Source: Candidatus Omnitrophota bacterium
GTDB taxonomy: Bacteria > Omnitrophota > Gorgyraeia > JAFGGP01
Assembly: GCA_016930485.1 (NCBI GenBank)
Contig: JAFGGP010000011.1
Span: 51,196 to 115,195 of the forward strand
Length of the DNA stretch: 64,000 nt
Direction: 5' to 3'
Shown here: positions 27,242 to 44,568 of the stretch, in pieces
Numbering within the stretch: the first letter of the stretch is position 1
Layout of the letters: the number at the start of each line of letters is the position of its first letter
Translations under genes and position numbers: made by a program
The notes under the pieces: model-generated
Seen by the model: the letters and a program-made list of their open reading frames with translations, nothing else
Database searches by the model: none
What the model was told of the DNA's origin: nothing

Positions 27242-27250
27242 AAGGAACAA

Positions 27251-27955: not shown

Positions 27956-28625
27956 CATTTTGATTGTAGCCGCTCATCCGGACGATGAGATTCTCGGGTG
28001 CGGGGGTACGGTTGCGCGCTTGATTAAAGAAGGGCATGCAGCGTATACGTTACTGTTGGGCGAGGGGGTAACCTCGCGAGATGAGGAGCGCGACCCGAAA
28101 AAACGGGGAAAAGAGATTAACAGCCTGAGAAACCAGGCCCAGCAGGCTAACGCTGCCCTCGGGGTAAAAGAAGTTTTTATACATAGCTTTCCGGATAACA
28201 GATTTGATACGGTGCCGCTTTTGGATATTGTCAAGGTTATAGAAAAGACAAAAGAGAAAGTAAAACCTGCCCTTGTCTTTACTCATTATGCGAATGACCT
28301 CAATATCGATCACCGCATTACCTGTGCCGCAGTTCTCACCGCTACCAGACCCGTGTTGGATGAGACAGTAAAAGAAATCTACTCGTTTGAGGTACCTTCT
28401 TCTACAGAGTGGAACTATCCCTTGAGTTTTTCCCCGAATGTATATTTTGATATCTCACAGACGATAGATGTGAAGTTGCAGGCAATAAAGCAGTACGTTT
28501 CAGAGATCAAAGAGCCACCCCACCCCAGGTCTCAGGAAGGCGTAGAGCTCAATGCAAGGATGTGGGGGATGAAGGTGGGACTTGGGTATGCCGAGGCCTT
28601 TACATGCGTGAGGCGCCTGGCGTAG
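27945..28625 (+). CDS. PIG-L/LmbE-family N-deacetylase
   Basis: ILIVAAHPDDEILGCGGTVARL zinc-binding signature of LmbE/PIG-L deacetylases. Confidence 0.75.
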   Translation: MKHNILIVAAHPDDEILGCGGTVARLIKEGHAAYTLLLGEGVTSRDEERDPKKRGKEINSLRNQAQQANAALGVKEVFIHSFPDNRFDTVPLLDIVKVIEKTKEKVKPALVFTHYANDLNIDHRITCAAVLTATRPVLDETVKEIYSFEVPSSTEWNYPLSFSPNVYFDISQTIDVKLQAIKQYVSEIKEPPHPRSQEGVELNARMWGMKVGLGYAEAFTCVRRLA

Positions 28626-28657
28626 GCGTGACGGAGCGGTCAAAAAAGAGGTATTAG

Positions 28658-29758
28658 ATGTCTTTAGAGTGCATCGTTTGCAGTTCGACACAGTGCACGT
28701 TATTGATTAAACAAGGCGGGTACGACATTTTTAGGTGCCGCCGCTGCCGCCTGATTTTCGCCCATCCCCTCCCGGATGCCGGCCAGCTGGGCGCGTTTTA
28801 TCAGAATTTTGGCCATAATCGCGAAGAGGCAGACTGTCCTGATGAACAGAGACTCATTGTTGAAGGGGCGATGAGAGAAAAAATTCGTCTTGCCAGGGAA
28901 ATCGCCGTCTCGCCGATAAAGACCTTTCTCGATATAGGTGCGGGCTGCGGCTATTATCTGCACGGGGCGAAAAAGGCGGGGTTGGACGTGACAGGCGTGG
29001 AACTGGACGCTAGTGCCGTTATGTTTGCCCGGGAGCATCTGGGGCTCGAAATAAAAGAGGGAGGTTTTCTGGAGGCAGCTCTCGAGGACAATTATTTTGA
29101 CTTTGTCCACCTTCGTAACTCTATCGAGCATTTTACGGACCCAGGGGAGTGCCTTTTGAAGATAAACCATATCATGAAAAAGGGCGGGGTATTAATACTG
29201 GAGACACCGAATTCCCAAAGCCCCGAGCACCTGGTGCGCCGGTTATTTCTGGATGCCGTAAAAACCCTGAGACGGAATATGCCCGGCCGGGCCGCGTGGT
29301 GGTATTGGAAGACGGCACTTATGCGGCCCTGGGCATATGTTGATCCCCCGCGACATCTCTATGGCTTCAATAAGCACAACATCGATCTTCTTCTGGCGAC
29401 TTATGGATTCAAAAGTTACGACATTATGGCCAAGCCGCTGGGCGACCCTGTTTATCATCCTGTTTCCCCCGGCGCCCAGAGGCAACGCGATGCTGAGATG
29501 CGCGCTGCCGAGGCGCGTCTTTTTTCAAGCTCCAGGCTGCGGTATTGTCTCTATGTCTTTGGATGGAAACCTGTTGCTTTTATCTTACAAAAGATAATCG
29601 CACGGGCCGGAATGGGGAATAATCTGGTTGTGTATGCTGTAAAAGAGAAGACGGTTGCACGCAAGTGTGCGGCGCCGACCGAAGAGCTTATTACGGGACG
29701 CCGCCAGGATATGTCTACATCAGAAACAAAGAGCGCACTCATACAATGTACAGCCTAA
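28658..29758 (+). CDS. Class-I SAM-dependent methyltransferase with an N-terminal C4 zinc-ribbon (paralog of 24701..25564)
   Basis: CIVCSS...CRRCRL zinc-ribbon. SAM motif FLDIGAGCGYYL and motif II FDFVHLRNSIEHF. Same architecture as the gene at 24701. Confidence 0.65.
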   Translation: MSLECIVCSSTQCTLLIKQGGYDIFRCRRCRLIFAHPLPDAGQLGAFYQNFGHNREEADCPDEQRLIVEGAMREKIRLAREIAVSPIKTFLDIGAGCGYYLHGAKKAGLDVTGVELDASAVMFAREHLGLEIKEGGFLEAALEDNYFDFVHLRNSIEHFTDPGECLLKINHIMKKGGVLILETPNSQSPEHLVRRLFLDAVKTLRRNMPGRAAWWYWKTALMRPWAYVDPPRHLYGFNKHNIDLLLATYGFKSYDIMAKPLGDPVYHPVSPGAQRQRDAEMRAAEARLFSSSRLRYCLYVFGWKPVAFILQKIIARAGMGNNLVVYAVKEKTVARKCAAPTEELITGRRQDMSTSETKSALIQCTA

Positions 29759-31155
29759 TTATACCCACATCGGCGCCTCAGAAAAGACATTCTCGGCGAT
29801 ATAGTATGCTGTGGAAGAAAATGCGGTCTTTTTTGCGCTATACGATCAAACCCTATGTGTATATCCCCATTACCTTTACCAAGCGGGTTCTTTTGGGCAA
29901 AGACCCCTATTGGCGGCAGTACTTCTGGAGTCGGTGGGGGTATGTGCCGAGAACGGTGGCGCGGGAACTTCAAAAGGCGCAACCCTTTTTTATAGCAGCG
30001 GATAGTTTCGGAGAGGTCAACGAGCTTTTTTCTTTCTGTAAGAGGCTTAAAGAAAGTTTTCCAGAGACACCGATTCTGGTCTCGACGAATACCGAGAACG
30101 GCTTTTCTCTGGCAAAAAGGATAGAGGCTGTTGATTTTGTTATCGATGCGCCGTGGGATCTTCCCGGTCCGACAAGGAGAGTACTCAGGGCCTGTTCTCC
30201 CAGGGCCTTGATTGTGATAGAACAGATCAGATTTCCGGTGCTTGTGCGTGAGGCAAAGGAGCTGAACATACCGACACTTCTCTGCAGTGGTTTTTTATCG
30301 GAAGACTGGGAAAATGTTCTTTCAGCCTTCAGGGCTGTAACACTAAAGGCCTATACATATTTGGATGCTATTGGCGCTAAAGGCATATCTGAGGTCGATA
30401 CCTTTTTAAGGATAGGAGTTGATTCAAAAAAGATATCGGTAACCGGGGATTTAAAATGCGATCCCGGTCATATCAGGATTTCGTCGGACGAGCGTGATGA
30501 TCTGCTGAAATCGGTAGCCTGTCATGATAGCCGTCCCGTATTTCTGGCAGCAAGCATACACAAAGAGGAGGCCTCCGCGATTATAGAGGGGTACCGGTTG
30601 GCAAAAAGGCGCGTACCGTTGCTTCGGTTATTGTGCGTCCCGCGCTATCCGGGGGAATTGGATTTTTTTGAAAGACTACTAGCAAAAAACGGCCTGGCTT
30701 TTGTGAAAAAATCCCTCATCACGAAAGACACTCTATCCAACGACCACTCGATTATATTAGTGGATACTATGGGTGAGCTGGCAAAATTATACGCCGTTGC
30801 CTCCCTTGCCTTTATCGGCGGCAGTTTTATGAAGATAGAAGGTCCCGGAAGAGGGGGGCACAATATAATGGAACCGGTTATCCAGAGCTGCCCCTTTTTA
30901 TTCGGACCTTATTTGTATCATCGCAGCGACATTCTTCGTCGTCTTGCGTCTGCCTGCCCGCATATAGTGGTGAGGACAGAAGAGGATCTTGCCTCAGGTA
31001 TTCAGAAGTTGCTGGAGGATCAGCATCACCTTACGTTACTCAGGGGCGTTATGAGTGAGATTGTGAACGAGAATGCATCCACGGTAGAAGTAAACATTGA
31101 TTTCGTAAAGAGATATACGGCTGTGTCAGGGGCACCCGTTACAGCTGTAACCTAG
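29746..31155 (+). CDS. WaaA/KdtA-family (GT30) ulosonic-acid transferase homolog
   Basis: Two conserved blocks align with E. coli WaaA: VLVSTNTENGFSLAKR and ILVDTMGELAKLYAVASLAFIGGSFMKIEGPGRGGHNIMEP...FGPYLYHRSDI. The start is ambiguous (29746 or 29806). Confidence 0.7.
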   Translation: MYSLIIPTSAPQKRHSRRYSMLWKKMRSFLRYTIKPYVYIPITFTKRVLLGKDPYWRQYFWSRWGYVPRTVARELQKAQPFFIAADSFGEVNELFSFCKRLKESFPETPILVSTNTENGFSLAKRIEAVDFVIDAPWDLPGPTRRVLRACSPRALIVIEQIRFPVLVREAKELNIPTLLCSGFLSEDWENVLSAFRAVTLKAYTYLDAIGAKGISEVDTFLRIGVDSKKISVTGDLKCDPGHIRISSDERDDLLKSVACHDSRPVFLAASIHKEEASAIIEGYRLAKRRVPLLRLLCVPRYPGELDFFERLLAKNGLAFVKKSLITKDTLSNDHSIILVDTMGELAKLYAVASLAFIGGSFMKIEGPGRGGHNIMEPVIQSCPFLFGPYLYHRSDILRRLASACPHIVVRTEEDLASGIQKLLEDQHHLTLLRGVMSEIVNENASTVEVNIDFVKRYTAVSGAPVTAVT

Positions 31156-31171
31156 ATAAAGGGGAGACGCG

Positions 31172-32761
31172 TTGGCAATCACCGATCTTAAGGAAAACGT
31201 CGAGGAAAAGGACCAGGCCGCGAAGAGAGCTGACGGACAATACAGTACCAGCCAGGTGCAAAGGCGCATAGTAAAAGATACCAGTCTCTTTTCCTTTGCC
31301 AGCATCTTTTCGCTTGTCATGTCTTTTTTCAGGGGAATGGTCATTCCTAATCTGCTTGGGCCGGTATATTACGGGATGCTGAACGGCCTGTCCGTCATAT
31401 CAAACCATACTCAGTATTCTCATATGGGCATTTCCAACGGAATGTCCTTTTGGATTCCCCATTATCGCGGCAAAGGTGATGAGCGCGCGATTGAAGAAGT
31501 GCGGAACGCAACCTTTACCGTTGCGGTGATTACCGGGGCGTTTGCCTCTGCCCTTATTTTTGTCATTTTGGGTATTGTGTGGAAACGCCTGGATATACCG
31601 GTAAGGGCGGGGTTGGGGGTATTCGCCTGTTTGGTTTTTATACAAAACCTGCGTATTTTTATAAACCTTGCCTTGCGGAGCGATCACCGCTTCAAACTGA
31701 TCAGTCTGATTACCATGCTGGAGTCCTTTTTTGCCACCGGTCTGGTCATCTCGCTTGCCTGGTTTTTTAAAATCTACGGTGTCTTTGCGGCAATGCTTCT
31801 CTCAAGCGGCTATTTTTTGCTTTTTTCCTTCGTTAAGGCAAAGTACCTGTTACGGTGGTACATGAAGAAAAAGGTTTTGCTGGATTTGCTATCGGTAGGG
31901 TTTCCTTTATTTATAATAGGATTATGCAATGTATTTTTTCTGGGCATCGACAGAATTCTTATTATCAAGGTGCTGGGTTTAAAGAATCTGGGGTTTTACG
32001 CCCTTGGCCTTACCCTGGCGACCTATCTCAAGACTATTCCGATAGCCTTTTCAAAGATAATAGCCCCGAGGGTGTATGAGGAGTCAAGCAGAGAGGAAGG
32101 AGACACGGTGCAGTACCTGGTAGACCCTGTCATATGTCTTAGCCTGCTTGCCGTTACCATGATCGGCTTTTTATATTTGATAGTGCCATGGTTTTTTTCC
32201 GAGATTTTTCCGGCCTATATTTCAGGCATACGCAGCGGACAGATTCTTTTGATCTCCGCCTATTTCCCTATCGTTGCCCTTATACCCAGTCAGATTATTA
32301 TTGGGCAGAGGAGGATGGCCCAGGTATTGGTGTTTCAGTTACTCGCTATCGGGGTGGCCTTTTTCTTCGGCCTTCTGGCCTTCAAGAGGGGGATGGGCAT
32401 CGAAGGTATGGCAGCCGCCATGCTCTTAGCCCATGCCCTATATGCTGTTCTTGCGTTATATGGCGCGTCACGCCTGACTATAAAAAACCGATGTAACATG
32501 CTCACTTTTTTTGCCTCTTTATCAGGTATTTTCTGCTACGGGATTCTGACGGCATATGGATTAGAGGGTTGTGGCTGGTTTTTCGGCTGCCGTGAAGGGT
32601 GCGCCCTTGTCCTCAAGACCCTTGTTTTTGTCGCAGGTCTTATTCCTGTGTATTATGTCGTGTCGCGTCGGTCATGGATGTTTAAAGAAATTGTTACATT
32701 AAGCGGGCTCGGCCTTTCCCGCATTAAAAATCGTATGAATGGAACAACCCTAGAGGTGTAA
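31172..32761 (+). CDS. Wzx-like polysaccharide flippase (MOP superfamily, Polysacc_synt type)
   Basis: TTG start 5 nt after an AAAGGGGAG RBS. About 12-14 predicted TM helices across 529 aa with no soluble domain. Confidence 0.55.
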   Translation: MAITDLKENVEEKDQAAKRADGQYSTSQVQRRIVKDTSLFSFASIFSLVMSFFRGMVIPNLLGPVYYGMLNGLSVISNHTQYSHMGISNGMSFWIPHYRGKGDERAIEEVRNATFTVAVITGAFASALIFVILGIVWKRLDIPVRAGLGVFACLVFIQNLRIFINLALRSDHRFKLISLITMLESFFATGLVISLAWFFKIYGVFAAMLLSSGYFLLFSFVKAKYLLRWYMKKKVLLDLLSVGFPLFIIGLCNVFFLGIDRILIIKVLGLKNLGFYALGLTLATYLKTIPIAFSKIIAPRVYEESSREEGDTVQYLVDPVICLSLLAVTMIGFLYLIVPWFFSEIFPAYISGIRSGQILLISAYFPIVALIPSQIIIGQRRMAQVLVFQLLAIGVAFFFGLLAFKRGMGIEGMAAAMLLAHALYAVLALYGASRLTIKNRCNMLTFFASLSGIFCYGILTAYGLEGCGWFFGCREGCALVLKTLVFVAGLIPVYYVVSRRSWMFKEIVTLSGLGLSRIKNRMNGTTLEV

Positions 32762-32768
32762 TGGCGCA

Positions 32769-34664
32769 ATGGAACACCCTGCCCCTCATTCTTATAAGAG
32801 CAATAAGTCAGTCATGATGGTTTTTGCCGCGCCGGTCGAAGAGAGACGTTACGAACAGCTGGTTAAGAAGATGACGTCCCGCTTTGAAAGGGTATCCGTT
32901 ATTTTCTTAAACGGTGAACCCCGGCAGATTCTATTCTCGAACGGATGTCCGAGGCATCTTCAAACAAAAGACATTCCTTACGAGACTGCCTTCCGGAAGG
33001 CGAAGTCCTTGTCAAAGGAGATCATCGAAAACATAACCGCGTTCCCGGAGAAGATGTTTTATTTTGGTTCGGTTTCGCTGGAGCCGGCATTTGATAAAAG
33101 CCTTCTCAAACGGCTTATGCAGTATGTGGGGGGATTTCTCAGGCTTGAAGATGCATTAAAAGACGAGCACCCCGACAGTATCTTTATTTACACAGAAGAT
33201 CTTTTCGAACGTGCACTGTTCTCTTCGCTAAAGAACGTTTTTCCGCAGGGTGCCTTTCACTTTGTTTCCGGTTTTTCATTGCGCCGGGCCGCATTTTTTT
33301 CTTTGTACATCAAAGGCTGGATGAGATTGTTTCGAGACCTTGCCTATGAACCGAGACCGCCTTTTAGACATGCAGGCCGTGCTGACGAGGCGAATGCATC
33401 ACCGTCCGCTGTTTTCCTGGACGATCACCCGCTTTTATTGGAAAGAATGGCGCCCCTTTTTAAGCGTTTTGTCGAGCAGAACTGGAAGGTAACCGTGGTC
33501 GGCTTTGGCAAAACGCGTAAAAGCGGCTGGGAACAGGCGGGTCTTGCGAGCCGCGTTTTTGGGAATCACCCGATAGGATTCCGGCTTCTTTTGGAGCGCT
33601 GGCGCTATATACTACGTTTCAGGAAGGTATATAGAAAGAGGGGCTTTACTCCTCACAGTGAGAAATGGAATGAGATGAGGCGGTATATTGCCTGTGAGGA
33701 AACCTATCGTATTATCTATACCTATCAAAAGATCAACCAGGCGTTGAGCGACCTTCAGCCAGAGGCCATTCTTTTTACTAATCGGCAGGTATTCGGTACG
33801 TTAATCGGTCTTGTGGCCAGGGCATCCGGGATTCCCGCGGTATGGATCCAGGAGGCCGGCCACTTCCTCCAGACGGCGATGTCAGTTAACAATGAGCATC
33901 TTATAGCGGATTACTTTCTTGTGTGGGGAGACGTCAGTCGGGAGACGCTGGTAGAGGGCGGTATCGACAGGGATAAGATCTTTATAACAGGGGCCCTTAT
34001 GTTTGAGAACCTCTTAAAAGAAGCGCGGGATATCACTGTCGGCCAGCGGTGTATCTTTGAGGGCGACAAGGAGCGGAAGGAACCCGTATGCCGCGTACTG
34101 CTCATCTCCGTTTTTCCCAGCGACGGGGCTGTGACCAATCCCCAGCCGTCAAGCAGACTGAAAGAGGATATTTTGAAGGCGGTAGGCAATGTTATGAAGG
34201 ATATCCCATCGGCTGTGCTGGTGATCAAGCCGCACCCCTTTGATGAAAACGGGTCGTCTTTTGATGAAAAGATCATCGGAGCTATACTTCCCCGTTCACA
34301 GTATGAGATAGCATCCTCTGCGAGCGATCTTGTGACACTGGTTAAGGAGTCAGACGCCATGTTTCTTATGCACGGGTCGACTGCTGGTCTGTATGCGGTG
34401 CTCTTCGGCAAGCCCATTGTGATGATGTCAGAAAAAAGCAACCTGGCATTTAATTTATTCGTAGAAGAAAAGATGTCCGTTTACGCCGCTACACCCGCGG
34501 ACATCAAAGACGCGCTTCATTCGGCCCTTTTTGACAAGGAGACACAGGACCGTTTGTTTAATAAAAGAAACGAATTCCTGGATCGGTACCTCAGCGTGAA
34601 TAATGAGGGTTTGCCTTCGGAAAATATCAGTACTTTTTTGAAGGAGCGCGTGTTAAGGACATGA
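32769..34664 (+). CDS. KpsS/KpsC/LpsZ-like (Capsule_synth family) putative glycosyltransferase with a long N-terminal extension
   Basis: C-terminal block VLVIKPHPFDE...DAMFLMHGSTAGLYAVLFGKPIVMM resembles the HP...S-T-x-G...G-K-P motif set of KpsS/LpsZ capsule transferases. The N-terminal ~350 aa are unassigned. Weak call. Confidence 0.4.
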   Translation: MEHPAPHSYKSNKSVMMVFAAPVEERRYEQLVKKMTSRFERVSVIFLNGEPRQILFSNGCPRHLQTKDIPYETAFRKAKSLSKEIIENITAFPEKMFYFGSVSLEPAFDKSLLKRLMQYVGGFLRLEDALKDEHPDSIFIYTEDLFERALFSSLKNVFPQGAFHFVSGFSLRRAAFFSLYIKGWMRLFRDLAYEPRPPFRHAGRADEANASPSAVFLDDHPLLLERMAPLFKRFVEQNWKVTVVGFGKTRKSGWEQAGLASRVFGNHPIGFRLLLERWRYILRFRKVYRKRGFTPHSEKWNEMRRYIACEETYRIIYTYQKINQALSDLQPEAILFTNRQVFGTLIGLVARASGIPAVWIQEAGHFLQTAMSVNNEHLIADYFLVWGDVSRETLVEGGIDRDKIFITGALMFENLLKEARDITVGQRCIFEGDKERKEPVCRVLLISVFPSDGAVTNPQPSSRLKEDILKAVGNVMKDIPSAVLVIKPHPFDENGSSFDEKIIGAILPRSQYEIASSASDLVTLVKESDAMFLMHGSTAGLYAVLFGKPIVMMSEKSNLAFNLFVEEKMSVYAATPADIKDALHSALFDKETQDRLFNKRNEFLDRYLSVNNEGLPSENISTFLKERVLRT

Positions 34665-34668
34665 CTTC

Positions 34669-35727
34669 ATGAGACTATACTTATCGACGTTAGCGAAAAA
34701 AATCGGGGTTTCCTGCTCCTATCGATTGAAGAAGGCGCGGCACAACGCCTTTTTGGCAGAGGCAACCCTCCCGCGCGTTGTTCACATCGAAAACACAAAC
34801 GCCTGTAACGCACGCTGTGTCATGTGTCCCCGCGAGAAAATGAAACGGCCTGTAGGATATATGGACCTGGCTCTTTTTAAGCGACTTATCGATGAATGCA
34901 GCCAGTGGGACTCTTTGGAGGAGGTGCATTTGCATGGGTTCGGTGAGCCCCTTATCGATCCCTATCTGACGGAGCGGGTGCGGTATGCCAAGGAAAAGGG
35001 CATACGAGATACCTATGTCGTTACTAATGCCTCTCTCCTGACCTCTGAGGTTTCAGAAAGGTTGATATGTGCCGGTCTGGACAGGATCAAAGTGAGTTTC
35101 TACGGGGCCACCAAGGAGGCCTATGAGGTTATCCATAGAGGGCTGACCTTTGAGGTAGTAAAGGACAATGTGCGGGATCTTTTTGATGTCCGGAGACGTC
35201 TTGATCGCAGCAATCCGAGGATATGCCTTCAATTTTTGCCCCAGAGCGCCAATAGTCATGAAGAAGGGATTTTTAAGGACACCTGGCAGGATATCATAGA
35301 CCTCTCCAGGGGCGATCGTCTTTCACAGGCACAGCTGCACAACTATGCGACGGGAAGGGTGTATAACCCGGTCAACAAGAAGGCCAGACGAACGAGTTGC
35401 GGGCTCCCGTTCGAAACGATGCACATTTTGTGGAACGGCGATGTAGCGCCCTGTTGTTACGATTATAACGGTTGTCTTGTATTGGGAAATGTAGTAGCTG
35501 CGGGCCTCAGGGAGGTCTGGAATAATAAGGCATTCCAGCACCTGAGAAAGGTTCATAGGAACAGGACTTTTTCGCGGGTTCCCTTGTGCGACGGCTGCGA
35601 TCAGCTCAAGGTGCCACGCTCGATAGAAAAAAGGCTGCTCTCTTATTTTGCTCTTACCATACCTCCCGAAAGGGATGTGGCAGTGGCAGGAGGGGCGGAA
35701 AAAAGAGAAGCCGCATTAAAGAGTTAA
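34669..35727 (+). CDS. Radical SAM enzyme with a C-terminal SPASM/twitch-type auxiliary Fe-S domain
   Basis: CNARCVMC (CxxxCxxC) radical-SAM cluster motif and a GFGEPL SAM-binding motif. Cys-rich C-terminus (CGLPFE...CCYDYNGC...CDGCDQ) typical of SPASM domains. Paralog of the C-terminal domain of 58515..60686. Confidence 0.8.
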   Translation: MRLYLSTLAKKIGVSCSYRLKKARHNAFLAEATLPRVVHIENTNACNARCVMCPREKMKRPVGYMDLALFKRLIDECSQWDSLEEVHLHGFGEPLIDPYLTERVRYAKEKGIRDTYVVTNASLLTSEVSERLICAGLDRIKVSFYGATKEAYEVIHRGLTFEVVKDNVRDLFDVRRRLDRSNPRICLQFLPQSANSHEEGIFKDTWQDIIDLSRGDRLSQAQLHNYATGRVYNPVNKKARRTSCGLPFETMHILWNGDVAPCCYDYNGCLVLGNVVAAGLREVWNNKAFQHLRKVHRNRTFSRVPLCDGCDQLKVPRSIEKRLLSYFALTIPPERDVAVAGGAEKREAALKS

Positions 35728-35777
35728 GACACACGGATTTGGTTACGGACAAGGACGTTTCCTGAAAAGGAGCCATA

Positions 35778-36983
35778 GTGCAAGAACGCATTAAACTGTT
35801 ATGTATCTGCAATGACCTGGCTATGGGGGGGATCCAGAAACTCCTGGTCACCACGGCCTCTGTTTTAAACAGGGATTTTTTTGATATTACGGTTTGTTCC
35901 ATAGGGAGCGATGTGACACTGGCTAAGGAGTTGGAAGATCTCGGTGTCAAGATTATTGCGTTAGGCCGAAGGTGTAAAATCTATAATATTCTTATTGCGG
36001 GGGATCTGTTTGACATCATAAGAACAACGAAGCCCCACATCGTGCATACACATTCATTCTACTCCAATTTTCACGGCAGGCTCGCGGCCTTTTTTTTAGG
36101 AGTTCCCTGCATCGTCGCAAGCGAACACGGGACCTATTCCAGCCGCAAGGGGCTGCGGCACAGACTGCTGGATTTGTGTTTGTCCGCCGTTTCCGACCGC
36201 GTTATTGCGGTATCACGTGCGGTGAAGAATTTTCTGGTCCAGGAAGAACATATTCCAGAGAAGAAAATCAGCGTTATCTATAACACCTTGGATTTCACAA
36301 AGATGGTTTCTCGCGATAGGGCCGTTGCACGGAAAGAGTTTCAATGGGAGGCCTCTGCCGTCTTATTGGGGCATGTGGGCACGTATACACCGACCAAGGG
36401 ACAGGATATAGCTATCGAGGTAATGAATCGCATCGTCCGCGATATCCCTCAGGCCTGCCTCATTCTGGTTGGGGCTGATCCAGTAAGGTATCGGAAGGTG
36501 CTTTCGGAGAGGGTGAGAGAACTGGGGCTGACCGGGAAGGTGCAGTTTTTTGACCGGGTAGATGATATGACCCTTTTTCTGAGCGCCCTCGATCTTTTTT
36601 TGTTCCCCTCTGCTACAGAGGGGTTTGGTCTTGCTGTTCTCGAGGCAGCCGCGATGGGAGTCCCGGTTGTCGCCTATGCTACCGAGGGAATACAGGAGAT
36701 ATTCGAAGACACCAGGGGCGTTTATCTGGTTTCGGAGAGAAGTCCCGAAGCGATCTCACACGCGACAAAAACGGTTATTTACAATATCGAACAGGCACGG
36801 GTCGATGCACTTCTGGTCAAGGAACATGTCAGAGAGAAATTTGCTCCAGGGATTTTTGCCGGCCAGCTAGAGAAACTCTACACGGATATTTTAACAGCGA
36901 AGGGCGTTGCGGTATTGCCGAAGGAATCGGTCTCCCGGTCGGAGCCAGCCCTTACCCAAACCTTTACCCGGAAGCCATCATGA
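35778..36983 (+). CDS. GT4-family glycosyltransferase
   Basis: GTG start after an AAAAGGAG RBS. C-terminal E-x7-E region FPSATEGFGLAVLEAAAMGVPVVA. Confidence 0.75.
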   Translation: MQERIKLLCICNDLAMGGIQKLLVTTASVLNRDFFDITVCSIGSDVTLAKELEDLGVKIIALGRRCKIYNILIAGDLFDIIRTTKPHIVHTHSFYSNFHGRLAAFFLGVPCIVASEHGTYSSRKGLRHRLLDLCLSAVSDRVIAVSRAVKNFLVQEEHIPEKKISVIYNTLDFTKMVSRDRAVARKEFQWEASAVLLGHVGTYTPTKGQDIAIEVMNRIVRDIPQACLILVGADPVRYRKVLSERVRELGLTGKVQFFDRVDDMTLFLSALDLFLFPSATEGFGLAVLEAAAMGVPVVAYATEGIQEIFEDTRGVYLVSERSPEAISHATKTVIYNIEQARVDALLVKEHVREKFAPGIFAGQLEKLYTDILTAKGVAVLPKESVSRSEPALTQTFTRKPS

Positions 36984-38071
36984 GACTTGTAACGGTTCTT
37001 GGAGCGCGGCCGCAGTTTATTAAGGCCGCATTACTTTCGCGTCTCCTCAGAGATGAGGGGGTGTCGGAAATCCTGGTCCATACCGGTCAGCATTATGAGG
37101 CGGAACTTTCGGATATCTTTTTCAGGGATCTTCAGATACCGACACCGGATTATGAACTGGGGGTGGGTTCGGGCAGTCACGCAGCACAGACCGCCTCTAT
37201 GATGGAGCGGCTCGAGCATGTTCTATGCAAAGAGAACCCTGATTATGTCCTGGTGTACGGGGATACCAATTCAACACTGGCTGCTGCCCTGGTGGCCGCA
37301 AAACTGAACATTCCCGTGGCGCACGTCGAGGCGGGTCTGCGCAGTTATAACCGCACCATGCCGGAAGAGATCAATCGCGTCATTACCGATCATCTTTCTT
37401 CTTTGCTTTTTTGTCCGACCGCTACCGCGGTTGACAACTTAAAGGCCGAGGGCATCACAGAAGGGATTTTTTGGGTCGGTGACATTATGTACGAATTATT
37501 TCTGCGTACACACGCGCGCTTGGAACTGAGTAGCGCGGTATGTGAAAAGTGGGGCATCCAGGAAAACCGCTATTATTTACTGACCCTGCACCGTCCGGGC
37601 AATGTTGACCACACAGAAACGCTGCGACTTACCCTGGATACCCTTTCCCGGCTTAAAGAAAAGATTATTTTTCCGCTGCACCCGCGGACAGCAAAGACCG
37701 TGAACATGCTCTATCAGGACGGCTTTGCGTTCGGCGACAATTTCATCGTCATGAAACCGGTTGGGTATCTTGAGATGTTGCAGCTGGAACGGTGTGCCAA
37801 GGCGATTATTACCGATTCGGGGGGTGTGCAGAAAGAGGCCTTTTTTCTTAGAAAGCCGTGTTTCACCCTGCGCCCGCAGACCGAGTGGATCGAGACGGTC
37901 AAGACCGGCTGGAATCAGTTGCTGTCGGTTGGGCCGGCTATGCTTGATGCACTTGAGGCCGTCAGGGAAGGCGGGGCATATGATGAGACCCTGTTCGGAG
38001 ACGGGGATACCGCCCGGAAGATATACTCTATCTTTAAAGAGCACGTTGTAACCCAAGAGGTGCCCAGGTGA
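36980..38071 (+). CDS. UDP-N-acetylglucosamine 2-epimerase (non-hydrolysing; WecB/WbpI/MnaA family)
   Basis: MRLVTVLGARPQFIKAA...VHTGQHYE...GDTNSTLA motifs of the Epimerase_2 family. Confidence 0.8.
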   Translation: MRLVTVLGARPQFIKAALLSRLLRDEGVSEILVHTGQHYEAELSDIFFRDLQIPTPDYELGVGSGSHAAQTASMMERLEHVLCKENPDYVLVYGDTNSTLAAALVAAKLNIPVAHVEAGLRSYNRTMPEEINRVITDHLSSLLFCPTATAVDNLKAEGITEGIFWVGDIMYELFLRTHARLELSSAVCEKWGIQENRYYLLTLHRPGNVDHTETLRLTLDTLSRLKEKIIFPLHPRTAKTVNMLYQDGFAFGDNFIVMKPVGYLEMLQLERCAKAIITDSGGVQKEAFFLRKPCFTLRPQTEWIETVKTGWNQLLSVGPAMLDALEAVREGGAYDETLFGDGDTARKIYSIFKEHVVTQEVPR

Positions 38072-39063
38072 ATAAGATTGTCGTGACGGGCTGCTGCGGT
38101 TTTATCGGGTCTCATGTCGTTGACGCCTTACTCAAAAAAGGGTACGAGGTAACCGGGATCGACGATCTCTCTATGGGGAATATGGACAATATGAGGGACG
38201 CCCTCTCTCAGGGTCATTTTACGTTTGAGAGATGCGACGTGTGCGACGCACAAAAAACAAAAGAGCTCTGTCGTTCCGCCGACGGCATTATACATTTAGC
38301 CGCGTATAAAATCCCCCGTTATAGCAGTGCCCTGCGGACCCTCACGGTTAACTCGTTCGGCACCTACAATATACTGGAGGCGGCACGGGAGGGAAAGGCG
38401 AAGGTTGTATTCGCATCTACCTCCGATGTCTACGGGAAAGGCGCTCAGATTCCCTTTGCGGAAGACGGCGACTCTGTCCTTGGCGCGAGCGATATCAACC
38501 GGTGGGCATATGCCACCTCGAAGCGCTTCGACGAACACCTCGGGTTTGCCTATATCCAGGAGTTCGGACTGCCGGTCGTGATACTCCGCTTTTTCGGTTC
38601 CTACGGCCCGAGACATCACCTGTCCTGGTGGGGCGGTCCGCAGAGCGTCTTTATCAGCGCCTTTCTGAAAGACGAACCGGTTACCATTCACGGCGACGGT
38701 CTGCAGACGCGCACCTTCATGTATATTGCCGATACGGTGCGCGGCGTGCTGGCCGCTTTGGAAAACGAGGAGGCAGACGGCGAAATAATCAACATAGGCT
38801 CTGAAACGGAAGTAACCATACTTAATTTAGCAAAAACTATCTACCGGCTTATGGGGAAGAGCGGTGAGCTGCCGCTCGAATTTGTTCCTTATGCAGCTTT
38901 TAAAAATCGCTATGAGGATGTGAGGAGACGGGTTCCTGATGTGTCAAAGGCCGAAAGACTGCTCGGTTTTAAGGCCAGGGTCGGTCTGGAAGAGGGGCTG
39001 ACCAGGACGATAAAGTGGCAAAGGGCGGCGATTACATCGATGGATAATCTTCAAACGACATGA
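38068..39063 (+). CDS. Extended-SDR NAD-dependent nucleotide-sugar epimerase/dehydratase/decarboxylase (ArnA-C-terminal/UXS-like candidate)
   Basis: VTGCCGFIGSH, YATSK catalytic region. 331 aa. Translationally coupled to the downstream formyltransferase. Confidence 0.65.
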   Translation: MNKIVVTGCCGFIGSHVVDALLKKGYEVTGIDDLSMGNMDNMRDALSQGHFTFERCDVCDAQKTKELCRSADGIIHLAAYKIPRYSSALRTLTVNSFGTYNILEAAREGKAKVVFASTSDVYGKGAQIPFAEDGDSVLGASDINRWAYATSKRFDEHLGFAYIQEFGLPVVILRFFGSYGPRHHLSWWGGPQSVFISAFLKDEPVTIHGDGLQTRTFMYIADTVRGVLAALENEEADGEIINIGSETEVTILNLAKTIYRLMGKSGELPLEFVPYAAFKNRYEDVRRRVPDVSKAERLLGFKARVGLEEGLTRTIKWQRAAITSMDNLQTT

Positions 39064-39857
39064 AAAAAATGCGAATCTATATCATGACGATGGACGAGCC
39101 ATTTTTTTTACCACGCTTTTTTCAGAAAATCGTGGAAACATATAAAGATGAGATAATCGAGATCGGCACCGTATCTTTTATTCCTCCCGGCAAATCCGTT
39201 ATCGCCTATGCACTCAATGAGATGAGGATGATGGGTCCGGGCGCATTTTTCAAGCAGATGTGTCTCTACCTATACTATCGTATATTAGACCGGATCTCGT
39301 CCGTCTTGCCTTTAAAAGGGGTATACTCAGTCAGGGCTTTGGGTGAGCGATACAGCATTCGGGTGCGAAGATTCGGAGATATAAATGCCCCCGAGGTCGT
39401 TGATTATCTAGCGTCCAGAGATATCGATCTTATTGTAAATCAGGCCCCGCAGATCTTTAAAAAGGAGTTACTGAACGTTCCCAGATTAGGCTGCATCAAT
39501 AAACACGCCTCTCTATTGCCAAGATATAGGGGGCTCTATCCTGTTTTTAGGGCGCTTCTGAATGATGAGAGGACGATGGGCGTTTCTATTCATTTTATGA
39601 ACGAAAAAATAGATGCCGGCAGCGTTATAGTCCAGGAATCATTTGTGGTAAAGGAAAGCGAAACCGTCTTTGATATGTATAAGAAGGTCTTTGATATAGG
39701 AGCCCGACTGATGATAGAAGCGATCGAACAGTGTCGTCTGGGTGTGCAGCCGTGTCTCTCTGTTTCTCTTTCGCATGAGTCCGGGGGTCATTTTTTTTCG
39801 GCGCCAAACGATGAAGAGATACATGCCTTTAGAAAAAAGGGATGGAAATTTATATAA
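39060..39857 (+). CDS. Formyltransferase-family protein (ArnA-N-terminal/Fmt-like)
   Basis: INKHASLLPRYRGLYP matches the H-x-SLLP-x-x-RG formyltransferase catalytic loop. Sits between an SDR and a DPM1-like GT2. Confidence 0.65.
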   Translation: MKKMRIYIMTMDEPFFLPRFFQKIVETYKDEIIEIGTVSFIPPGKSVIAYALNEMRMMGPGAFFKQMCLYLYYRILDRISSVLPLKGVYSVRALGERYSIRVRRFGDINAPEVVDYLASRDIDLIVNQAPQIFKKELLNVPRLGCINKHASLLPRYRGLYPVFRALLNDERTMGVSIHFMNEKIDAGSVIVQESFVVKESETVFDMYKKVFDIGARLMIEAIEQCRLGVQPCLSVSLSHESGGHFFSAPNDEEIHAFRKKGWKFI

Positions 39858-39868
39858 GGAAAAATAGC

Positions 39869-40672
39869 ATGATTTATTTTATAGTGCCTGCCTATAACGA
39901 AGAAAAAAATATCGAGACCCTGATTGCCAAAACTGCCGAAAAAATGGAGGAGCTCAATGAAGACTACCGCATTTTGGTCGTCAATGACGGTTCCTCAGAT
40001 AATACCGATCGCATTGTGCGGTCATTCACGGGCAAGGCAAACGTCGACATTCTGACGCATCCGACCAATTTAGGCGTGGGCGCGGCGTTCAGGAACGGCT
40101 TCAAAAAAGCCCTGGCAGAAACTACCGATGACGACATTATTGTGACCAAGGAGGCCGACAACACAAGCGATCTTTCCATATTAAAGGATATGACGCTCCA
40201 GATACGCGGCGGTTCGGACGTTGTGCTTGCCTCCTGTTTTACAAAGGGGGGAGGGGTAAAGAATTCTACCCCGTATCGCCATATGCTCTCCGCAGGGGCA
40301 AATGCGTTGATAAAGCTCTTTTTTAATATGAGGGGACTGCATACATTTAGTTCTTTTTACAGGGCGTATCGCCCTTCTATTCTGCGGACGGCTTTAGCAT
40401 GTTATGGTGGCAGACTTATTGAAGAGCCCGGCTACGAATGCATGGTAGACTCCTTGATAAAATTACACCGGCTTACCAGAAATATTTCAGAGGTCCCCAT
40501 GGTCCTGAGGTGCGATATGAGAGAGGGGAAGAGCAAGATGAAAGTGCTCAGGACAATCAGGGGTTATTTGAGGGTGGTATTTAAAAATCTCTTTTTGTTT
40601 CACGTAGGGAGAACGGGAAGCGATCACGACGATTTTCGCCGGGCAGTCAAAGGAGAGGAAAGAACGACGTGA
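39869..40672 (+). CDS. GT2 polyprenyl-phosphate sugar transferase (DPM1/ArnC/GtrB-like)
   Basis: MIYFIVPAYNEEKNIE...YRILVVNDGSSDNT DXD-containing GT-A core. Start chosen after an AAGGA RBS; the track ORF starts at 39842. Confidence 0.7.
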   Translation: MIYFIVPAYNEEKNIETLIAKTAEKMEELNEDYRILVVNDGSSDNTDRIVRSFTGKANVDILTHPTNLGVGAAFRNGFKKALAETTDDDIIVTKEADNTSDLSILKDMTLQIRGGSDVVLASCFTKGGGVKNSTPYRHMLSAGANALIKLFFNMRGLHTFSSFYRAYRPSILRTALACYGGRLIEEPGYECMVDSLIKLHRLTRNISEVPMVLRCDMREGKSKMKVLRTIRGYLRVVFKNLFLFHVGRTGSDHDDFRRAVKGEERTT

Positions 40673-42231
40673 ACAGAATAAAGAATTACTTTATCGACAA
40701 CGCCTGGCTTATCAGCTTGGTTATGGCTACGTTACTGTTCAGGCTGCCGGGTATTTTTCGGCCTGAAACCATAGGGGATGAAGGTAAGGCAGTTGCTATT
40801 ATACAAAAACCATGGGGGCAGTTTATAGATCAGCTCATTTATCTGGATGCCCACCCGCCGCTCTATTTCTGTTTCATAAAATGGTGGGGCACAATGAGTA
40901 GAGATCTATGGTTTTTAAGGATGTTTTCTATTATGTTGTCTGTCCTGACGTGTATAGTGCTTTTTAAACTCACCCGAAGGCTTTTTAATAAGACGGCGGC
41001 GATCATAACCGCTTATTTATTCACCATCTCCCCGCAACTGGTTTTTGTATTTCAGTATCTGCGGCCGTATGCACTGGCCACTTTCTTCTTTTCCGTTTTT
41101 TTATACCTGGCTGTACTGTTTATGCATGCCGGTTCCTTCAGGAAAGCGGCAGTACTTGGAATATGCCTCGGCGCAATCTCTTTTTTGCTTGCCTATACCT
41201 TTTATCTATCTGTTTTTATTCTCTTTGCCTTTGCCCTGGTTGCTGTAAAGATACTCTTCAAAGATAAAAAGAAATTGTGGCTCTTTCTCTCTTCCCAGGC
41301 CCTCGCCCTGTTGCTCTATGTGCATTGGCTTCCCATACTGCAGGCCCAGACGAGAGAATTATACGCAGGGACGGGAGGCAGCAATCCGTTATTACATGCC
41401 GAAAGAATAGGTTTTTATGCCGGCAGATTGCATGTGGGCAATTTTTGTAAGCTATGTGCCGGCCTTTTGCAGTTCGAGGATATCATAGGGCATTCGAGAA
41501 GATTTTCCGAACGGTTGCCGGCATTCTGGTTGTTTTTTATTACGGGGGCCGCTATCCTTTTTTGCGTGTATATACTGGCTGCATCAATGAAGCATATATC
41601 GAAGAATGAAAGATATAAAAATACGGGCCAGCTTCTTTTGGGAACTCTTATGCTGTCGGTCTTTTTTATTTCATTGAAACTGGTGGCCGGAGATTATGGC
41701 ATCGGATTTCCCGTGCATATGAATATGCGGTATCTCTGTCAGCTATCTATCATAGTCCTTATTATAATGGGTGTTCTCCTGGCGGCTCTCTCTAGAGCAA
41801 AAAGAACCCTCATCCTGACCGGCATCTCTCTTTTTTATATCGCCCAGGTTTTGTATATAAATTCATATCCGATGAATATGTACAGGGCAGCATTTGCATT
41901 TCTGAAAGGAAAGAATGTCGATACGATTATTGCCTGCCCTCAAAGCCCGTCATGGATTGCCTATGTGGATAAAGAGCAGGAGATAGAAAAAAGAGTGAAT
42001 ATCATCGAATGTAGAGATGAGGCGACCGAGAAGAATACCCTCAAACGCGTTTCTTTGCTTGATGAGGTTTGTGTGTATTATTTGAATAAGGCGGAAAATA
42101 CCATCAGATTTACCGGCATATACGAAGATCTGCTGACAGAGTTACATACTATGGGATTTGTTGAGCAGGACGCCAAAAACATAAATGACCTGATTGTGTT
42201 GAAGTATCTGGTACGGCGAACACGCTCATAG
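40669..42231 (+). CDS. GT-C fold polytopic membrane glycosyltransferase (ArnT/PMT_2-like)
   Basis: About 12 TM helices. First periplasmic loop carries GDEGK, a DE-type motif as in ArnT/PMT GT-C enzymes. Lies immediately downstream of the ArnC-like GT2. Confidence 0.55.
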   Translation: MNRIKNYFIDNAWLISLVMATLLFRLPGIFRPETIGDEGKAVAIIQKPWGQFIDQLIYLDAHPPLYFCFIKWWGTMSRDLWFLRMFSIMLSVLTCIVLFKLTRRLFNKTAAIITAYLFTISPQLVFVFQYLRPYALATFFFSVFLYLAVLFMHAGSFRKAAVLGICLGAISFLLAYTFYLSVFILFAFALVAVKILFKDKKKLWLFLSSQALALLLYVHWLPILQAQTRELYAGTGGSNPLLHAERIGFYAGRLHVGNFCKLCAGLLQFEDIIGHSRRFSERLPAFWLFFITGAAILFCVYILAASMKHISKNERYKNTGQLLLGTLMLSVFFISLKLVAGDYGIGFPVHMNMRYLCQLSIIVLIIMGVLLAALSRAKRTLILTGISLFYIAQVLYINSYPMNMYRAAFAFLKGKNVDTIIACPQSPSWIAYVDKEQEIEKRVNIIECRDEATEKNTLKRVSLLDEVCVYYLNKAENTIRFTGIYEDLLTELHTMGFVEQDAKNINDLIVLKYLVRRTRS

Positions 42232-42252
42232 AAAGGGACAGAGAAACTCGAT

Positions 42253-43934: not shown

Positions 43935-44556
43935 AAGAAATATCTGTGTCACCGGCCCCACAGACCCGACGCACCGGCACTACCAGTTTGGTGTCCGCTA
44001 TTTTATGAATAAGAGGCTGGAGATGGCACTTGAACTGCTTGAGGGGGCTGGCGGGGTGCGGGGGAGGTTTCTGGATGCGGGTTGCGGAGGCGGGGTCTTT
44101 TTACCGGAACTGTCGCGCTATTCCGACCGGCTCTATGCGATTGACATACACCGCAATCTCGCCGCCGTCGAACAAATGTGTAAGAACGAGGAAATCAAAG
44201 CGCATTTTTCATGCGCCTCACTTAAGGATATACCTTTTCAGGATGAGACATTTGATACGGTTATCTCGATTAGCGTACTCGAATTTGTTGACGATCTGGA
44301 GCGTGCCGTGGCTGAACTCAAACGTGTCTTAAAAAAGAGCGGCAGGCTAATCGTTGGCTTTCCTGTGTTAAACTACGTGACCAGACTCGGTTATTTCTTG
44401 ATCGGATGTTTTATCGCGGAGAAGGTCCATACCGCGACCCATACGGAGATCCTGGCGGCTTTAAACAGGGAGTTCAAAAGCGGAAGGGTGAATTATTTTC
44501 CGAAATATGCACCTTCTCATGCCGCACTCTATGCCTGCGGTTTGTTTAGCAGATAA
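43912..44556 (+). CDS. Class-I SAM-dependent methyltransferase
   Basis: FLDAGCGGGVF motif I, FDTVISISVLEFV motif II, AGAGGAG RBS. Confidence 0.6.
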   Translation: MTLLLPDKRNICVTGPTDPTHRHYQFGVRYFMNKRLEMALELLEGAGGVRGRFLDAGCGGGVFLPELSRYSDRLYAIDIHRNLAAVEQMCKNEEIKAHFSCASLKDIPFQDETFDTVISISVLEFVDDLERAVAELKRVLKKSGRLIVGFPVLNYVTRLGYFLIGCFIAEKVHTATHTEILAALNREFKSGRVNYFPKYAPSHAALYACGLFSR

Positions 44557-44568
44557 AAGGGGACAGCG

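Follow-up and report, generated by a model that had tools for sequence, protein, structure and literature searches.

Among radical SAM (rSAM) enzymes of solved structure, BtrN (PDB 4M7S/4M7T) is the 2-deoxy-scyllo-inosamine dehydrogenase of butirosin biosynthesis, and DesII (PDB 8HZV) and BlsE (PDB 7VOB) act on nucleotide-linked sugars, TDP-4-amino-4,6-dideoxyglucose and cytosylglucuronate, respectively. To our knowledge, nearly all characterised sugar-acting rSAM enzymes (BtrN, DesII, BlsE, AprD4 and NeoN) belong to antibiotic pathways; BtrN, DesII and BlsE show no coupling to glycosyltransferases (GTs). The twitch domain of the BtrN type is a shortened, SPASM-like domain at the C-terminus that has about four cysteines and a single auxiliary cluster, whereas a SPASM domain is recognised by the seven-cysteine motif CX9-15GX4C ... 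CX2CX5CX3C ... C. The SPASM domain binds two auxiliary clusters (PMC13459092).

A precedent for a GT family defined by its linkage to rSAM genes is TIGR04157 ('glyco_rSAM_CFB'), which comprises Bacteroidota GTs encoded beside radical SAM genes. That system is reportedly associated with a peptide-modification cassette. Both GT4s of the locus described here produce partial matches to TIGR04157 (60-69 bits, where the cut-off is 400), and neither is a member. Literature searches found no paper in which WaaA or a Kdo transferase is paired or fused with a radical SAM protein and none that joins radical SAM, SPASM, glycosyltransferase and polysaccharide; radical SAM is not mentioned in the top matches of the nonulosonic-acid literature.

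The window, that is, the whole stretch of DNA analysed, comprises 64,000 nucleotides from a Candidatus Omnitrophota bacterium. A motif scan identified only two ORFs in it with the CX3CX2C motif: the gene of a free 352-aa protein (hereafter, the free rSAM) and that of a GT4 fusion protein (Table 1).

Table 1. Features of the Omnitrophota window discussed in the text
Feature	Coordinates	Strand	Basis
Pseudaminic-acid-type nonulosonic acid genes	16931..24704	+	NCBIfam bit scores; Pfam NeuB, CTP_transf_3
CTP_transf_3 cytidylyltransferase fused to HemL-like class-III aminotransferase	20013..22067	+	Pfam, NCBIfam
GT30 (Kdo-transferase-like) glycosyltransferase, partner family of the free rSAM's clade	29665..31155	+	Pfam, NCBIfam, PDB
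Wzx-type flippase of the recurrent GT30-rSAM-Wzx-GT4 cassette	31172..32761	+	Pfam Polysacc_synt_3
631-aa putative GT-B-like protein, weakly KpsS/Capsule_synth-like	32769..34664	+	Weak Pfam and NCBIfam matches
Free radical SAM/twitch-domain enzyme, 352 aa	34669..35727	+	ORF; NCBI MBN1793556.1; Ca. Omnitrophota MAG
CX3CX2C radical-SAM cluster motif codons (C46, C50, C53)	34804..34827	+	Motif scan
Twitch-type auxiliary-cluster region: C244, C262 (+ C263), C307, C310	35398..35598	+	Alignment, Cys pattern
GT4 glycosyltransferase 3' of the free rSAM	35778..36983	+	Pfam
GT4-GT2-PMT_2 (GT-C) block 5' of the fusion	54997..58467	+	Pfam
GT4 + radical SAM + twitch fusion, 723 aa	58515..60686	+	Pfam architecture
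CX3CX2C of the fused rSAM domain (C452, C456, C459)	59868..59891	+	Motif scan

The free rSAM ORF, with AAGGA about 12 nt 5' of its ATG, is translated into a protein that contains HIENTNACNARCVMCPREKMKRPVGYMDLALFKRLIDEC and for which MBN1793556.1 is the exact NCBI protein-cluster member; its AF2 model has a pLDDT of 87.3. The original prediction described a stand-alone radical-SAM/SPASM protein, and both Pfam domains indeed pass their cut-offs, Radical_SAM (PF04055) with 61.1 bits against 29.5 at residues 43-174 and SPASM (PF13186) with 58.5 bits against 21.5 at residues 244-311. The SPASM half of that description needs correction. In the C-terminal region, which aligns with that of BtrN, C244, C262, C307 and C310 are invariant in all 122 aligned family sequences and C263 is present in 103 of the 122; the CX2CX5CX3C stretch was sought in the free rSAM and its aligned relatives and is absent. 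With four invariant cysteines against a motif of seven, the two-cluster SPASM reading is rejected, and the domain is, by its cysteine pattern, a four-cysteine twitch domain, which is predicted from comparison with BtrN to hold one fully Cys-ligated auxiliary [4Fe-4S] cluster. The radical-SAM cysteines C46-x3-C50-x2-C53 are retained in 121-122 of the 122 sequences, and G90, G92 and E93 of the stretch 'HGFGEP', which we take to be the GGE-type SAM-binding motif, are invariant within the clade of the free rSAM.

The placement of the free rSAM relative to BtrN, DesII and other known enzymes is a ranking by E-value and bit score against PDB. BtrN is the top match (E=9e-19), aligned across both the rSAM and the C-terminal domains, and DesII (1.7e-7) and BlsE (1.8e-5) rank second and third among the solved structures, in sequence as well as in Foldseek comparisons. 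A profile of the clade yields the same order, with BtrN at 4.9e-27 and 98 bits, followed at a distance by DesII (34 bits) and BlsE (28 bits). The free rSAM is therefore best read, from these matches, as a BtrN-type radical SAM enzyme, but at 21-26% identity BtrN is too distant for its reaction type to be assigned to the free rSAM with confidence. It is also about 60-100 residues longer than BtrN, with an insert at approximately residues 175-240 and an additional N-terminal helix, and, unlike BtrN, it is GT-coupled; its gene lies in a primary cell-envelope glycan locus, and its host is an uncultured anaerobe. Pfam scans of approximately 50 large ORFs of the window detected neither a 2-DOI synthase nor an aminoglycoside (2-deoxystreptamine) gene set. 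The nucleotide-linked sugars used by DesII and BlsE are the type of substrate that we propose for the free rSAM, although its matches to both are far below that to BtrN.

The Pfam label raises the question of whether the free rSAM could be a SPASM-type, anSME-like maturase of a RiPP or of a partner protein, possibly the GT itself. We consider this very unlikely. The best of the NCBIfam maturase models, W_rSAM_matur, scores 119.9 bits, far short of its cut-off of 380, the others score lower, and the maturase matches span only the N-terminal half of the protein; the PDB sequence matches at E<=0.01 do not include anSME, and Pfam scans of the window detected no sulfatase (PF00884). The gene is flanked by gaps of 4 nt and 50 nt without a precursor-like ORF, and all small ORFs of at least 20 aa within 34300..36100 are nested in larger genes, which leaves no room for a precursor-peptide gene; the original prediction had likewise seen no precursor-like small ORF nearby. 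Some rSAM enzymes of RiPP pathways lack an RRE, so that its absence is supportive only. The RRE is an N-terminal winged helix-turn-helix domain (PMC8326336). In the free rSAM, approximately 36 residues precede the core and are modelled by AF2 as a single helix (residues 2-30), and an extension that consists of one helix of about 30 residues argues against an RRE. Thus, compared with the SPASM maturases anSME, AlbA, SkfB, SuiB, PqqE and MftC, the free rSAM has neither the seven-cysteine, two-cluster motif nor an RRE nor a precursor. A non-exhaustive look at the seven GT30 loci, 24 Planctomycetota loci, 56 sister-clade loci and the marine nonulosonic-acid (NulO) loci described below revealed no conserved family of small ORFs. 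Genes of this kind that are annotated 'SPASM' should accordingly not be assumed to encode peptide maturases.

The genomic context of the closest homologs points to a different partner. Seven loci encode an rSAM protein 47-52% identical to the free rSAM, and in all seven a GT30 (Glycos_transf_N) gene lies directly 5' of the rSAM gene and overlaps it by 11-50 nt. A natural GT30+rSAM+SPASM fusion (P0134), with an rSAM part 48% identical to the free rSAM, falls inside the same clade of the family tree. These seven loci and one fusion make up the close clade; three of the loci come from adjacent-numbered runs (SRR22387992, SRR22388270 and SRR22388287). A scan of GTDB genomes with the clade alignment found no close GT30-clade member, only relatives at 32-46% identity (the PKS-associated sister clade and Planctomycetota), so that the close clade is known from contigs of Logan, JGI and ENA. 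A scan of JGI metagenomes with the free rSAM alone recovered relatives at no more than 41% identity, plus one 1.4-kb fragment. In these loci, the conserved partner of the clade is a GT30-type gene and not the GT4 to which the original prediction drew attention.

The window also encodes a GT30 protein, 3.5 kb 5' of the free rSAM, with the Wzx and 631-aa protein genes in between. Translation probably begins at M48 (position 29806). It matches Pfam Glycos_transf_N (PF04413) with 97.4 bits (cut-off 23.9) and, in PDB, WaaA of Aquifex (2xci, E=9e-19). WaaA/KdtA is the GT30 Kdo transferase of lipid IVA, and the window protein aligns along the whole length of the NCBIfam WaaA models at 209-269 bits, but, although it is within the GT30 fold family, it remains under every WaaA equivalog cut-off (363-617 bits; for example, 209.2 against 438). 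Unlike WaaA, it is encoded in a capsule- or O-antigen-like locus, directly 3' of a pseudaminic-acid-type nonulosonic-acid gene set. This set consists of PseB, PseC, an aldo/keto reductase, a cytidylyltransferase::aminotransferase fusion, and PseH-, PseG- and PseI-like proteins; PseB scores 499.6 bits and PseC 497.1 bits, above their respective cut-offs of 407.75 and 423.5, whereas the PseG-, PseH- and PseI-like proteins are under theirs. Judged from this gene content, the set could supply a CMP-activated ulosonic acid. An Arn-like lipid-A-modification module is also present in the window.

The other elements of the recurrent cassette surround the free rSAM in the window as well. Wzx genes lie 3' of the rSAM gene in three of the homologous loci (L002, L118 and L114) and on the P0008 contig, and GT4 genes are part of the cassette on the P0008 contig and in L002 and L118. 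Of these GT4s, only that of L002 is shown to be homologous (30% identity) to the window GT4 that follows the free rSAM; this window GT4 has an AAGGAG ribosome-binding site before its GTG start. The free rSAM gene had been placed between a KpsS-like transferase and a GT4. The GT4 is clear from its Pfam matches; the KpsS-like assignment holds only weakly, with 24.2 bits for Capsule_synth (cut-off 20) and 33.7 bits for Epimerase_2 (cut-off 30.6). The 631-aa protein in question has no sequence match in PDB and no similarity to the GT30 protein, and its single-sequence AF2 model (pLDDT 35) is unusable. Even so, it could be the true partner of the free rSAM here, because its gene ends 4 nt upstream and because, in another Omnitrophota MAG (L059), a 642-aa homolog is encoded 33 nt 3' of an rSAM relative.

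The wider family comprises 1,186 clusters at 50% identity (E<=1e-30) and occupies several contexts. An rSAM-GT9 pair is present in 23 of the 24 Planctomycetota loci; on marine contigs, rSAM relatives adjoin NeuB, CTP_transf_3, DegT or Aminotran_3 genes, and one member (P0204) is a CTP_transf_3-rSAM fusion. The best-sampled sister clade (39-46% identity) differs: 48 of its 56 loci in GTDB genomes lie in lipid-type clusters that encode a PUFA-synthase-like PKS, an ACPS, an ABC transporter, an AONS-like aminotransferase and an SDR. The chemistry of the family is therefore not tied to sugars, and the family is not uniformly glycan-directed. The proposal of a glycan-directed family as opposed to a peptide maturase thus stands for the free rSAM, with its BtrN, DesII and BlsE relatives, the glycan loci of its closest homologs, each with a neighbouring GT gene, and its lack of a precursor and an RRE, but does not extend to the family as a whole.

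The sister-clade clusters are also the chief evidence for a lipid-directed function, in which the rSAM would modify the lipid moiety of a glycolipid (an anchor, lipid-A-like or of another kind, or a polyprenyl carrier) and the linkage to GTs would reflect a shared lipid-anchored substrate. GT30 and GT9 enzymes use lipid-A-anchored acceptors, the window contains the Arn-like module, and there are weak matches to the lipid-acting rSAM enzyme GDGT-MAS/Tes. BtrN, DesII and BlsE match much more strongly, with 98 bits for BtrN against 26 bits for GDGT-MAS with the clade profile. Furthermore, several clades are found among genes of soluble nucleotide-sugar enzymes (NeuB, CTP_transf_3 and aminotransferases), one member is fused to a cytidylyltransferase, and H224 is retained in all sugar-context clades but is Asp in 43 of the 56 members of the PKS clade, which suggests an altered active site in the latter. 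On this evidence, we regard a lipid target for the free rSAM as unlikely.

We propose instead, with fair rather than high confidence, that the free rSAM is a BtrN-type, twitch-bearing tailoring enzyme of a cell-envelope glycan pathway that is partnered with a GT, of the GT30 type in its clade, with the GT30 protein of the window representing the functional partner family. The target sugar is probably an ulosonic acid. In the proposed mechanism, reductive cleavage of SAM would generate a 5'-deoxyadenosyl radical that would take a hydrogen from a carbon of an ulosonic-acid-type sugar handled by the partner transferase. This sugar would be either the CMP-activated donor, before transfer, or the residue immediately after its attachment to a lipid-linked acceptor. 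Most likely, the substrate radical would then be oxidised via the auxiliary cluster, and an alcohol would become a ketone, as happens in BtrN. As the overall outcome, dehydrogenation is put forward tentatively, as somewhat short of probable, and epimerisation, dehydration or C-C chemistry are possible. Such a step would be independent of O2, and later enzymes of the locus (aminotransferases and methyltransferases) could build on its product.

A more specific version, which we consider possible but rather doubtful, is that of a previously unrecognised, GT-coupled rSAM class of envelope-glycan pathways in anaerobes, in which the GT30 clade acts on a CMP-ulosonic acid of the Kdo or pseudaminic type and hands a keto- or otherwise radical-tailored donor directly to the transferase. 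If true, it would account for the repeated overlap or fusion with GT30, GT9, GT4 and cytidylyltransferase genes. Such an enzyme would be the O2-independent equivalent of the oxygen-dependent tailoring of Kdo and would open a route to additional amino or methyl groups on ulosonic acids. Uncultured anaerobes of the Omnitrophota, Desulfobacterota and Planctomycetota encode members of the family in primary surface-glycan loci, and these members are repeatedly joined to LPS-core-type glycosyltransferases. If the coupling has its basis in chemistry on sugars of the ulosonic-acid type, a new enzymatic step would be added to Kdo and nonulosonic-acid biology, and surface sugars that have so far escaped notice would be predicted. 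The natural GT30-rSAM, GT4-rSAM and cytidylyltransferase-rSAM fusions are ready constructs for work on substrate and mechanism.

The second CX3CX2C protein of the window contains HIELTNRCNLNCAMCSHDRMKRIRKDMDFHLFRCLIDEC and consists of Glycos_transf_1/Glyco_transf_4 domains followed by Radical_SAM and SPASM (Pfam); the NCBI entry names it a glycosyltransferase of Ca. Omnitrophica. The alignment of the free rSAM with the C-terminal domain of this fusion, which had been claimed from the sequences, was borne out by BLASTP, with 32% identity over 296 aligned residues (residues 21-311 against 427-712) at E=9e-45, a similarity that is far beyond chance. Neither of the two outcomes named beforehand as telling against the original prediction, linkage to RiPP precursors or a non-significant similarity to the fused domain, was encountered. 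The significant similarity, the lack of further rSAM genes in the window and the position of BtrN as the top PDB match of both copies (8.9e-11 for the fused domain) are what would be expected if the two had arisen by recent duplication within the locus and shared one reaction, a GT4 having captured one copy. The low identity already weighs against this. In addition, when the 285 family sequences are ranked by similarity to the free rSAM, the fused domain comes only 272nd (150 bits), the free rSAM is 31st in the reverse ranking, and the two are on distant branches of the family tree (neighbour-joining, midpoint-rooted, without support values). Six residues invariant in the GT30 clade (H87, G90, K108, Y116, D138 and K141) are different in the fused clade.

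Each copy also has its own orthologs and conserved context, GT30-linked for the free rSAM and GT4-fused for the other. When only the fused rSAM domain served as the query of a word-index search, none of the 12 matches was a fusion, and the ortholog of the fusion (P0286) was recovered with the full-length protein as the query; it has 712 aa, the identical architecture and 47% identity over 99% of the length. The recent-paralog reading is accordingly rejected as highly improbable, and the description of the two proteins as copies of one rSAM subfamily is not sustained: by identity, ranking and tree position, the free rSAM and the fused domain represent separate clades that diverged long ago. The GT4-fused copy would then be an anciently diverged enzyme that may perform analogous GT-coupled chemistry in a separate module. 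The context of the ortholog (L115) is syntenic with the surroundings of the fusion, and the gene order GT4-GT2-PMT_2-fusion is found in both L115 and L116.

The free 352-aa radical SAM (rSAM) protein combines a radical-SAM site with a four-Cys twitch domain. Across 122 aligned family members, C46, C50 and C53 are kept in 121-122 sequences, and the only invariant cysteines of the C-terminal domain are C244, C262, C307 and C310, with C263 present in 103; the same pattern was observed in every clade examined. The C-terminal cysteine pattern of these 122 members lacks a CX2CX5CX3C stretch, and therefore, the two-cluster SPASM reading was rejected and the Pfam 'SPASM' match was interpreted as a one-cluster, twitch-type domain. 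In HMMER comparisons, this segment pairs Cys for Cys with BtrN, the sugar-acting rSAM of the butirosin pathway, which is the nearest solved relative by sequence, clearly ahead of the other solved ones. The free protein matched BtrN at E=9e-19, and DesII and BlsE, which act on nucleotide-linked sugars, at 1.7e-7 and 1.8e-5, respectively; the clade profile yielded 4.9e-27 (98 bits) for BtrN, 34 bits for DesII and 28 bits for BlsE, and the rSAM domain of the GT4::rSAM fusion (fused copy) yielded 8.9e-11 for BtrN, 4.4e-4 for DesII and no BlsE match at E<=0.01. With the free protein, even the best-scoring curated NCBIfam model (120 bits) stayed far below its cut-off (380).

A peptide or protein maturase is very unlikely, in agreement with the original prediction: no peptide-maturase features were detected, and all membership tests count against this role. 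There is no precursor-like small ORF near the rSAM gene, where every small ORF sits within a larger gene. The N-terminal extension, modeled as a single helix of ~30 residues, leaves too little room for an RRE, a domain that RiPP rSAMs typically carry (PMC8326336).

The window is a large surface-glycan locus. One co-directional block of ~51 genes spans all 64 kb, with the large genes all on the + strand and a positive GC skew in each 2-kb bin; no tRNA genes were found in positions 1..64000. Genes for LptD-like, UDP-sugar dehydrogenase (two), Wzi, Wza and Wzz-like proteins come first, followed by a pseudaminic-acid-type set (PseB, PseC, PseH-, PseG- and PseI-like, and a cytidylyltransferase::aminotransferase fusion), in which PseB and PseC score above their equivalog cut-offs. 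In the loci of distant relatives, unlike this fusion, separate Aminotran_3 and CTP_transf_3 genes adjoin the twitch rSAM. Next come the GT30, Wzx, 631-aa protein, rSAM, GT4 and WecB genes, and then, the Arn-like module, several methyltransferases, aminotransferases and four PMT_2 GT-C proteins, along with the block GT4-GT2-PMT_2-[GT4::rSAM]-GT4-PMT_2. The Arn-like module suggests lipid-A or core modification, and the PMT_2 paralogs point to several periplasmic, lipid-carrier-dependent glycosyl transfers. As called mechanically, the GT30 ORF opens at a GTG (29665) and shares 94 nt with the methyltransferase gene before it; since family models align only from ~residue 51, translation more likely begins at M48 (29806).

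Locations of the features discussed, in the window and in homolog loci (L-numbers)
Feature	Position	Strand	Description
Cytidylyltransferase::aminotransferase	20013..22067	+	684 aa; CTP_transf_3 and HemL-like class-III aminotransferase
GT30 gene	29665..31155	+	Kdo-transferase-like
631-aa protein	32769..34664	+	weakly KpsS-like
rSAM	34669..35727	+	352 aa; Pfam Radical_SAM, SPASM
His224 codon of rSAM	35338..35340	+	
Arn-like (4-amino-arabinose-type) module	38068..43934	+	SDR epimerase/dehydratase, ArnA-N-like formyltransferase, ArnC-like GT2, ArnT-like PMT_2, methyltransferase, ArnD-like polysaccharide deacetylase
PMT_2 paralogs	40669, 44569, 57148, 62020	+	GT-C membrane glycosyltransferases
GT4::rSAM fusion	58515..60686	+	723 aa; Pfam GT4-type domains, then Radical_SAM and SPASM
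L059	3641..6573		rSAM relative and 642-aa protein
L068	9857..14504		rSAM-GT9 pair
L100	8939..10510		523 aa; Sulfatase (PF00884) at residues 180-442
L114	7689..10385		898 aa; B12-binding radical SAM::GT4 fusion

The rSAM gene is tightly packed: 4 nt lie between it and the stop codon of the 631-aa ORF upstream, and 50 nt between it and the downstream GT4 gene, which has a strong RBS. The protein is identical to NCBI MBN1793556.1 ('SPASM domain-containing protein') from a Candidatus Omnitrophota MAG, encoded on the same 122-kb contig as the fusion. The NCBI record holds the full 352 aa; one public gene call (Logan; P0001, 301 aa) differs in the region 34669..34824, as it begins at M52 and lacks two of the three CX3CX2C cysteines.

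An exhaustive HMMER search yielded 1,186 clusters at 50% identity (E<=1e-30), and the genomic contexts sort into coherent clades of a neighbor-joining tree (midpoint-rooted, without support values). The family is coupled genomically to, and fused with, glycosyltransferases (GT30, GT9, GT4) and CMP-ulosonic-acid enzymes. In the clade of the free protein, a Glycos_transf_N (GT30) gene lies directly upstream and runs 11-50 nt into the rSAM gene in 7/7 loci of homologs at 47-52% identity (L001, L002, L007/8, L113, the P0008 contig, L114 and L118). Downstream are usually B12-rSAMs, methyltransferases, Wzx and GT4, with NeuB after the rSAM in two loci (L001, L007). P0134 is a natural 779-aa fusion of GT30, Radical_SAM and SPASM, the rSAM part of which shares 48% identity with the window protein. 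Although the GT30 proteins align with the WaaA models from end to end, their scores (209-269 bits) stay below the cut-offs (363-617), which marks them as divergent GT30 members. The L114 protein is another independent rSAM-GT fusion.

In 23/24 loci of the Planctomycetota/Pirellula clade (32-38% identity; MAG loci L065-L088), the rSAM gene is paired with a GT9 heptosyltransferase-family gene located 0-135 nt downstream; a BamB-like gene and a flagellin gene flank the pair in L068. In marine clades (28-37% identity), the rSAM adjoins Aminotran_3 or belongs to clusters with NeuB, CTP_transf_3 and DegT/Aminotran_3; P0204 is a relative fused to a cytidylyltransferase, and others are fused to methyltransferases. 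In the NeuB/CTP_transf_3/DegT cluster of L100, the Sulfatase-domain protein encoded just after a distant relative of the rSAM looks, by size and domain position, more like a membrane phosphoethanolamine-transferase type than a formylglycine sulfatase. At 39-46% identity, a large sister clade occurs in Desulfobacterota, Lentisphaerae, Phycisphaerae and Syntrophales (GTDB loci L003 and L010-L064). It is accompanied, in 48/56 loci, by a PUFA-synthase-like PKS, an ACPS (phosphopantetheinyl transferase), an ABC transporter, an unknown 322-aa protein, an AONS-like aminotransferase and an SDR; the whole looks like an uncharacterized lipid or aminolipid gene cluster. This PKS linkage, and the fact that the acceptors used by GT30 and GT9 are lipid-anchored, would fit a lipid-directed role of the rSAM, which we consider unlikely. 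A second case of adjacency between an rSAM gene and a homolog of the 631-aa protein comes from a different Ca. Omnitrophota MAG (L059), where the gene order is opposite to that in the window: the rSAM relative has 39.6% identity, and the 642-aa homolog (22% identity over 293 aa, E=2e-11) begins 33 nt downstream of it.

The free and fused copies had been considered two members of one subfamily. Both peptide strings quoted for them were found in the respective ORFs, the only window ORFs with the CX3CX2C motif, and the similarity is real (32% identity over 296 columns, residues 21-311 against 427-712, BLASTP E=9e-45; 150 bits in phmmer). The single-subfamily assignment itself fails: the fused domain ranks 272 of 285 family sequences with the free protein as query, the free protein ranks 31 in the reciprocal search, the two occupy distant branches of the midpoint-rooted tree without support values, and the fused clade has other residues in place of H87, G90, K108, Y116, D138 and K141, all of them invariant among GT30-clade members. 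P0286 (712 aa, 47% identity to the fusion over 99% of its length) shares the GT4+rSAM architecture and the upstream GT4-GT2-PMT_2 synteny, so the fusion is real and conserved rather than an assembly artifact. Recent duplication, highly improbable given the ranks, the tree and the separate orthologs, was rejected; each copy represents an old lineage of its own within a broad BtrN-like family.

Sugar-acting twitch rSAMs are already known as a kind; the widespread variant that anaerobes carry in primary envelope-glycan loci, coupled or fused to glycosyltransferases, seems not to have been described before. Our literature search found no paper tying rSAMs to Kdo transferases or nonulosonic-acid (NulO) pathways; a 2026 Omnitrophota preprint reports only a Pfam co-occurrence module including glycosyl transferase group 1 and radical SAM, and in a 2014 paper on Brachyspira, an rSAM gene is listed next to a GT and rhamnose genes but is not analyzed functionally.

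The free protein is probably a glycosyltransferase-coupled, sugar-tailoring twitch rSAM, which would abstract H from the sugar handled by the partner transferase. For the GT30 clade, the most economical substrate would be a CMP-activated ulosonic acid or the just-transferred residue, because GT30 enzymes (WaaA) use CMP-ulosonic donors, the family includes a cytidylyltransferase fusion, and the GT30 gene comes right after the pseudaminic-acid-type pathway. By analogy with BtrN, the predicted auxiliary cluster, with Cys as its only ligands, may serve as an electron sink in a two-electron oxidation; an 'oxidize then transaminate' logic fits the aminotransferases adjoining the rSAM in several clades. 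If the protein does tailor sugars, dehydrogenation has somewhat less than an even chance of being the reaction, and epimerization, dehydration or C-C chemistry is possible instead. His224 is kept in the GT30, GT9, NulO-linked and GT4-fused clades and is replaced by Asp in 43/56 PKS-linked members, a distribution that makes it a candidate substrate-class-determining residue.
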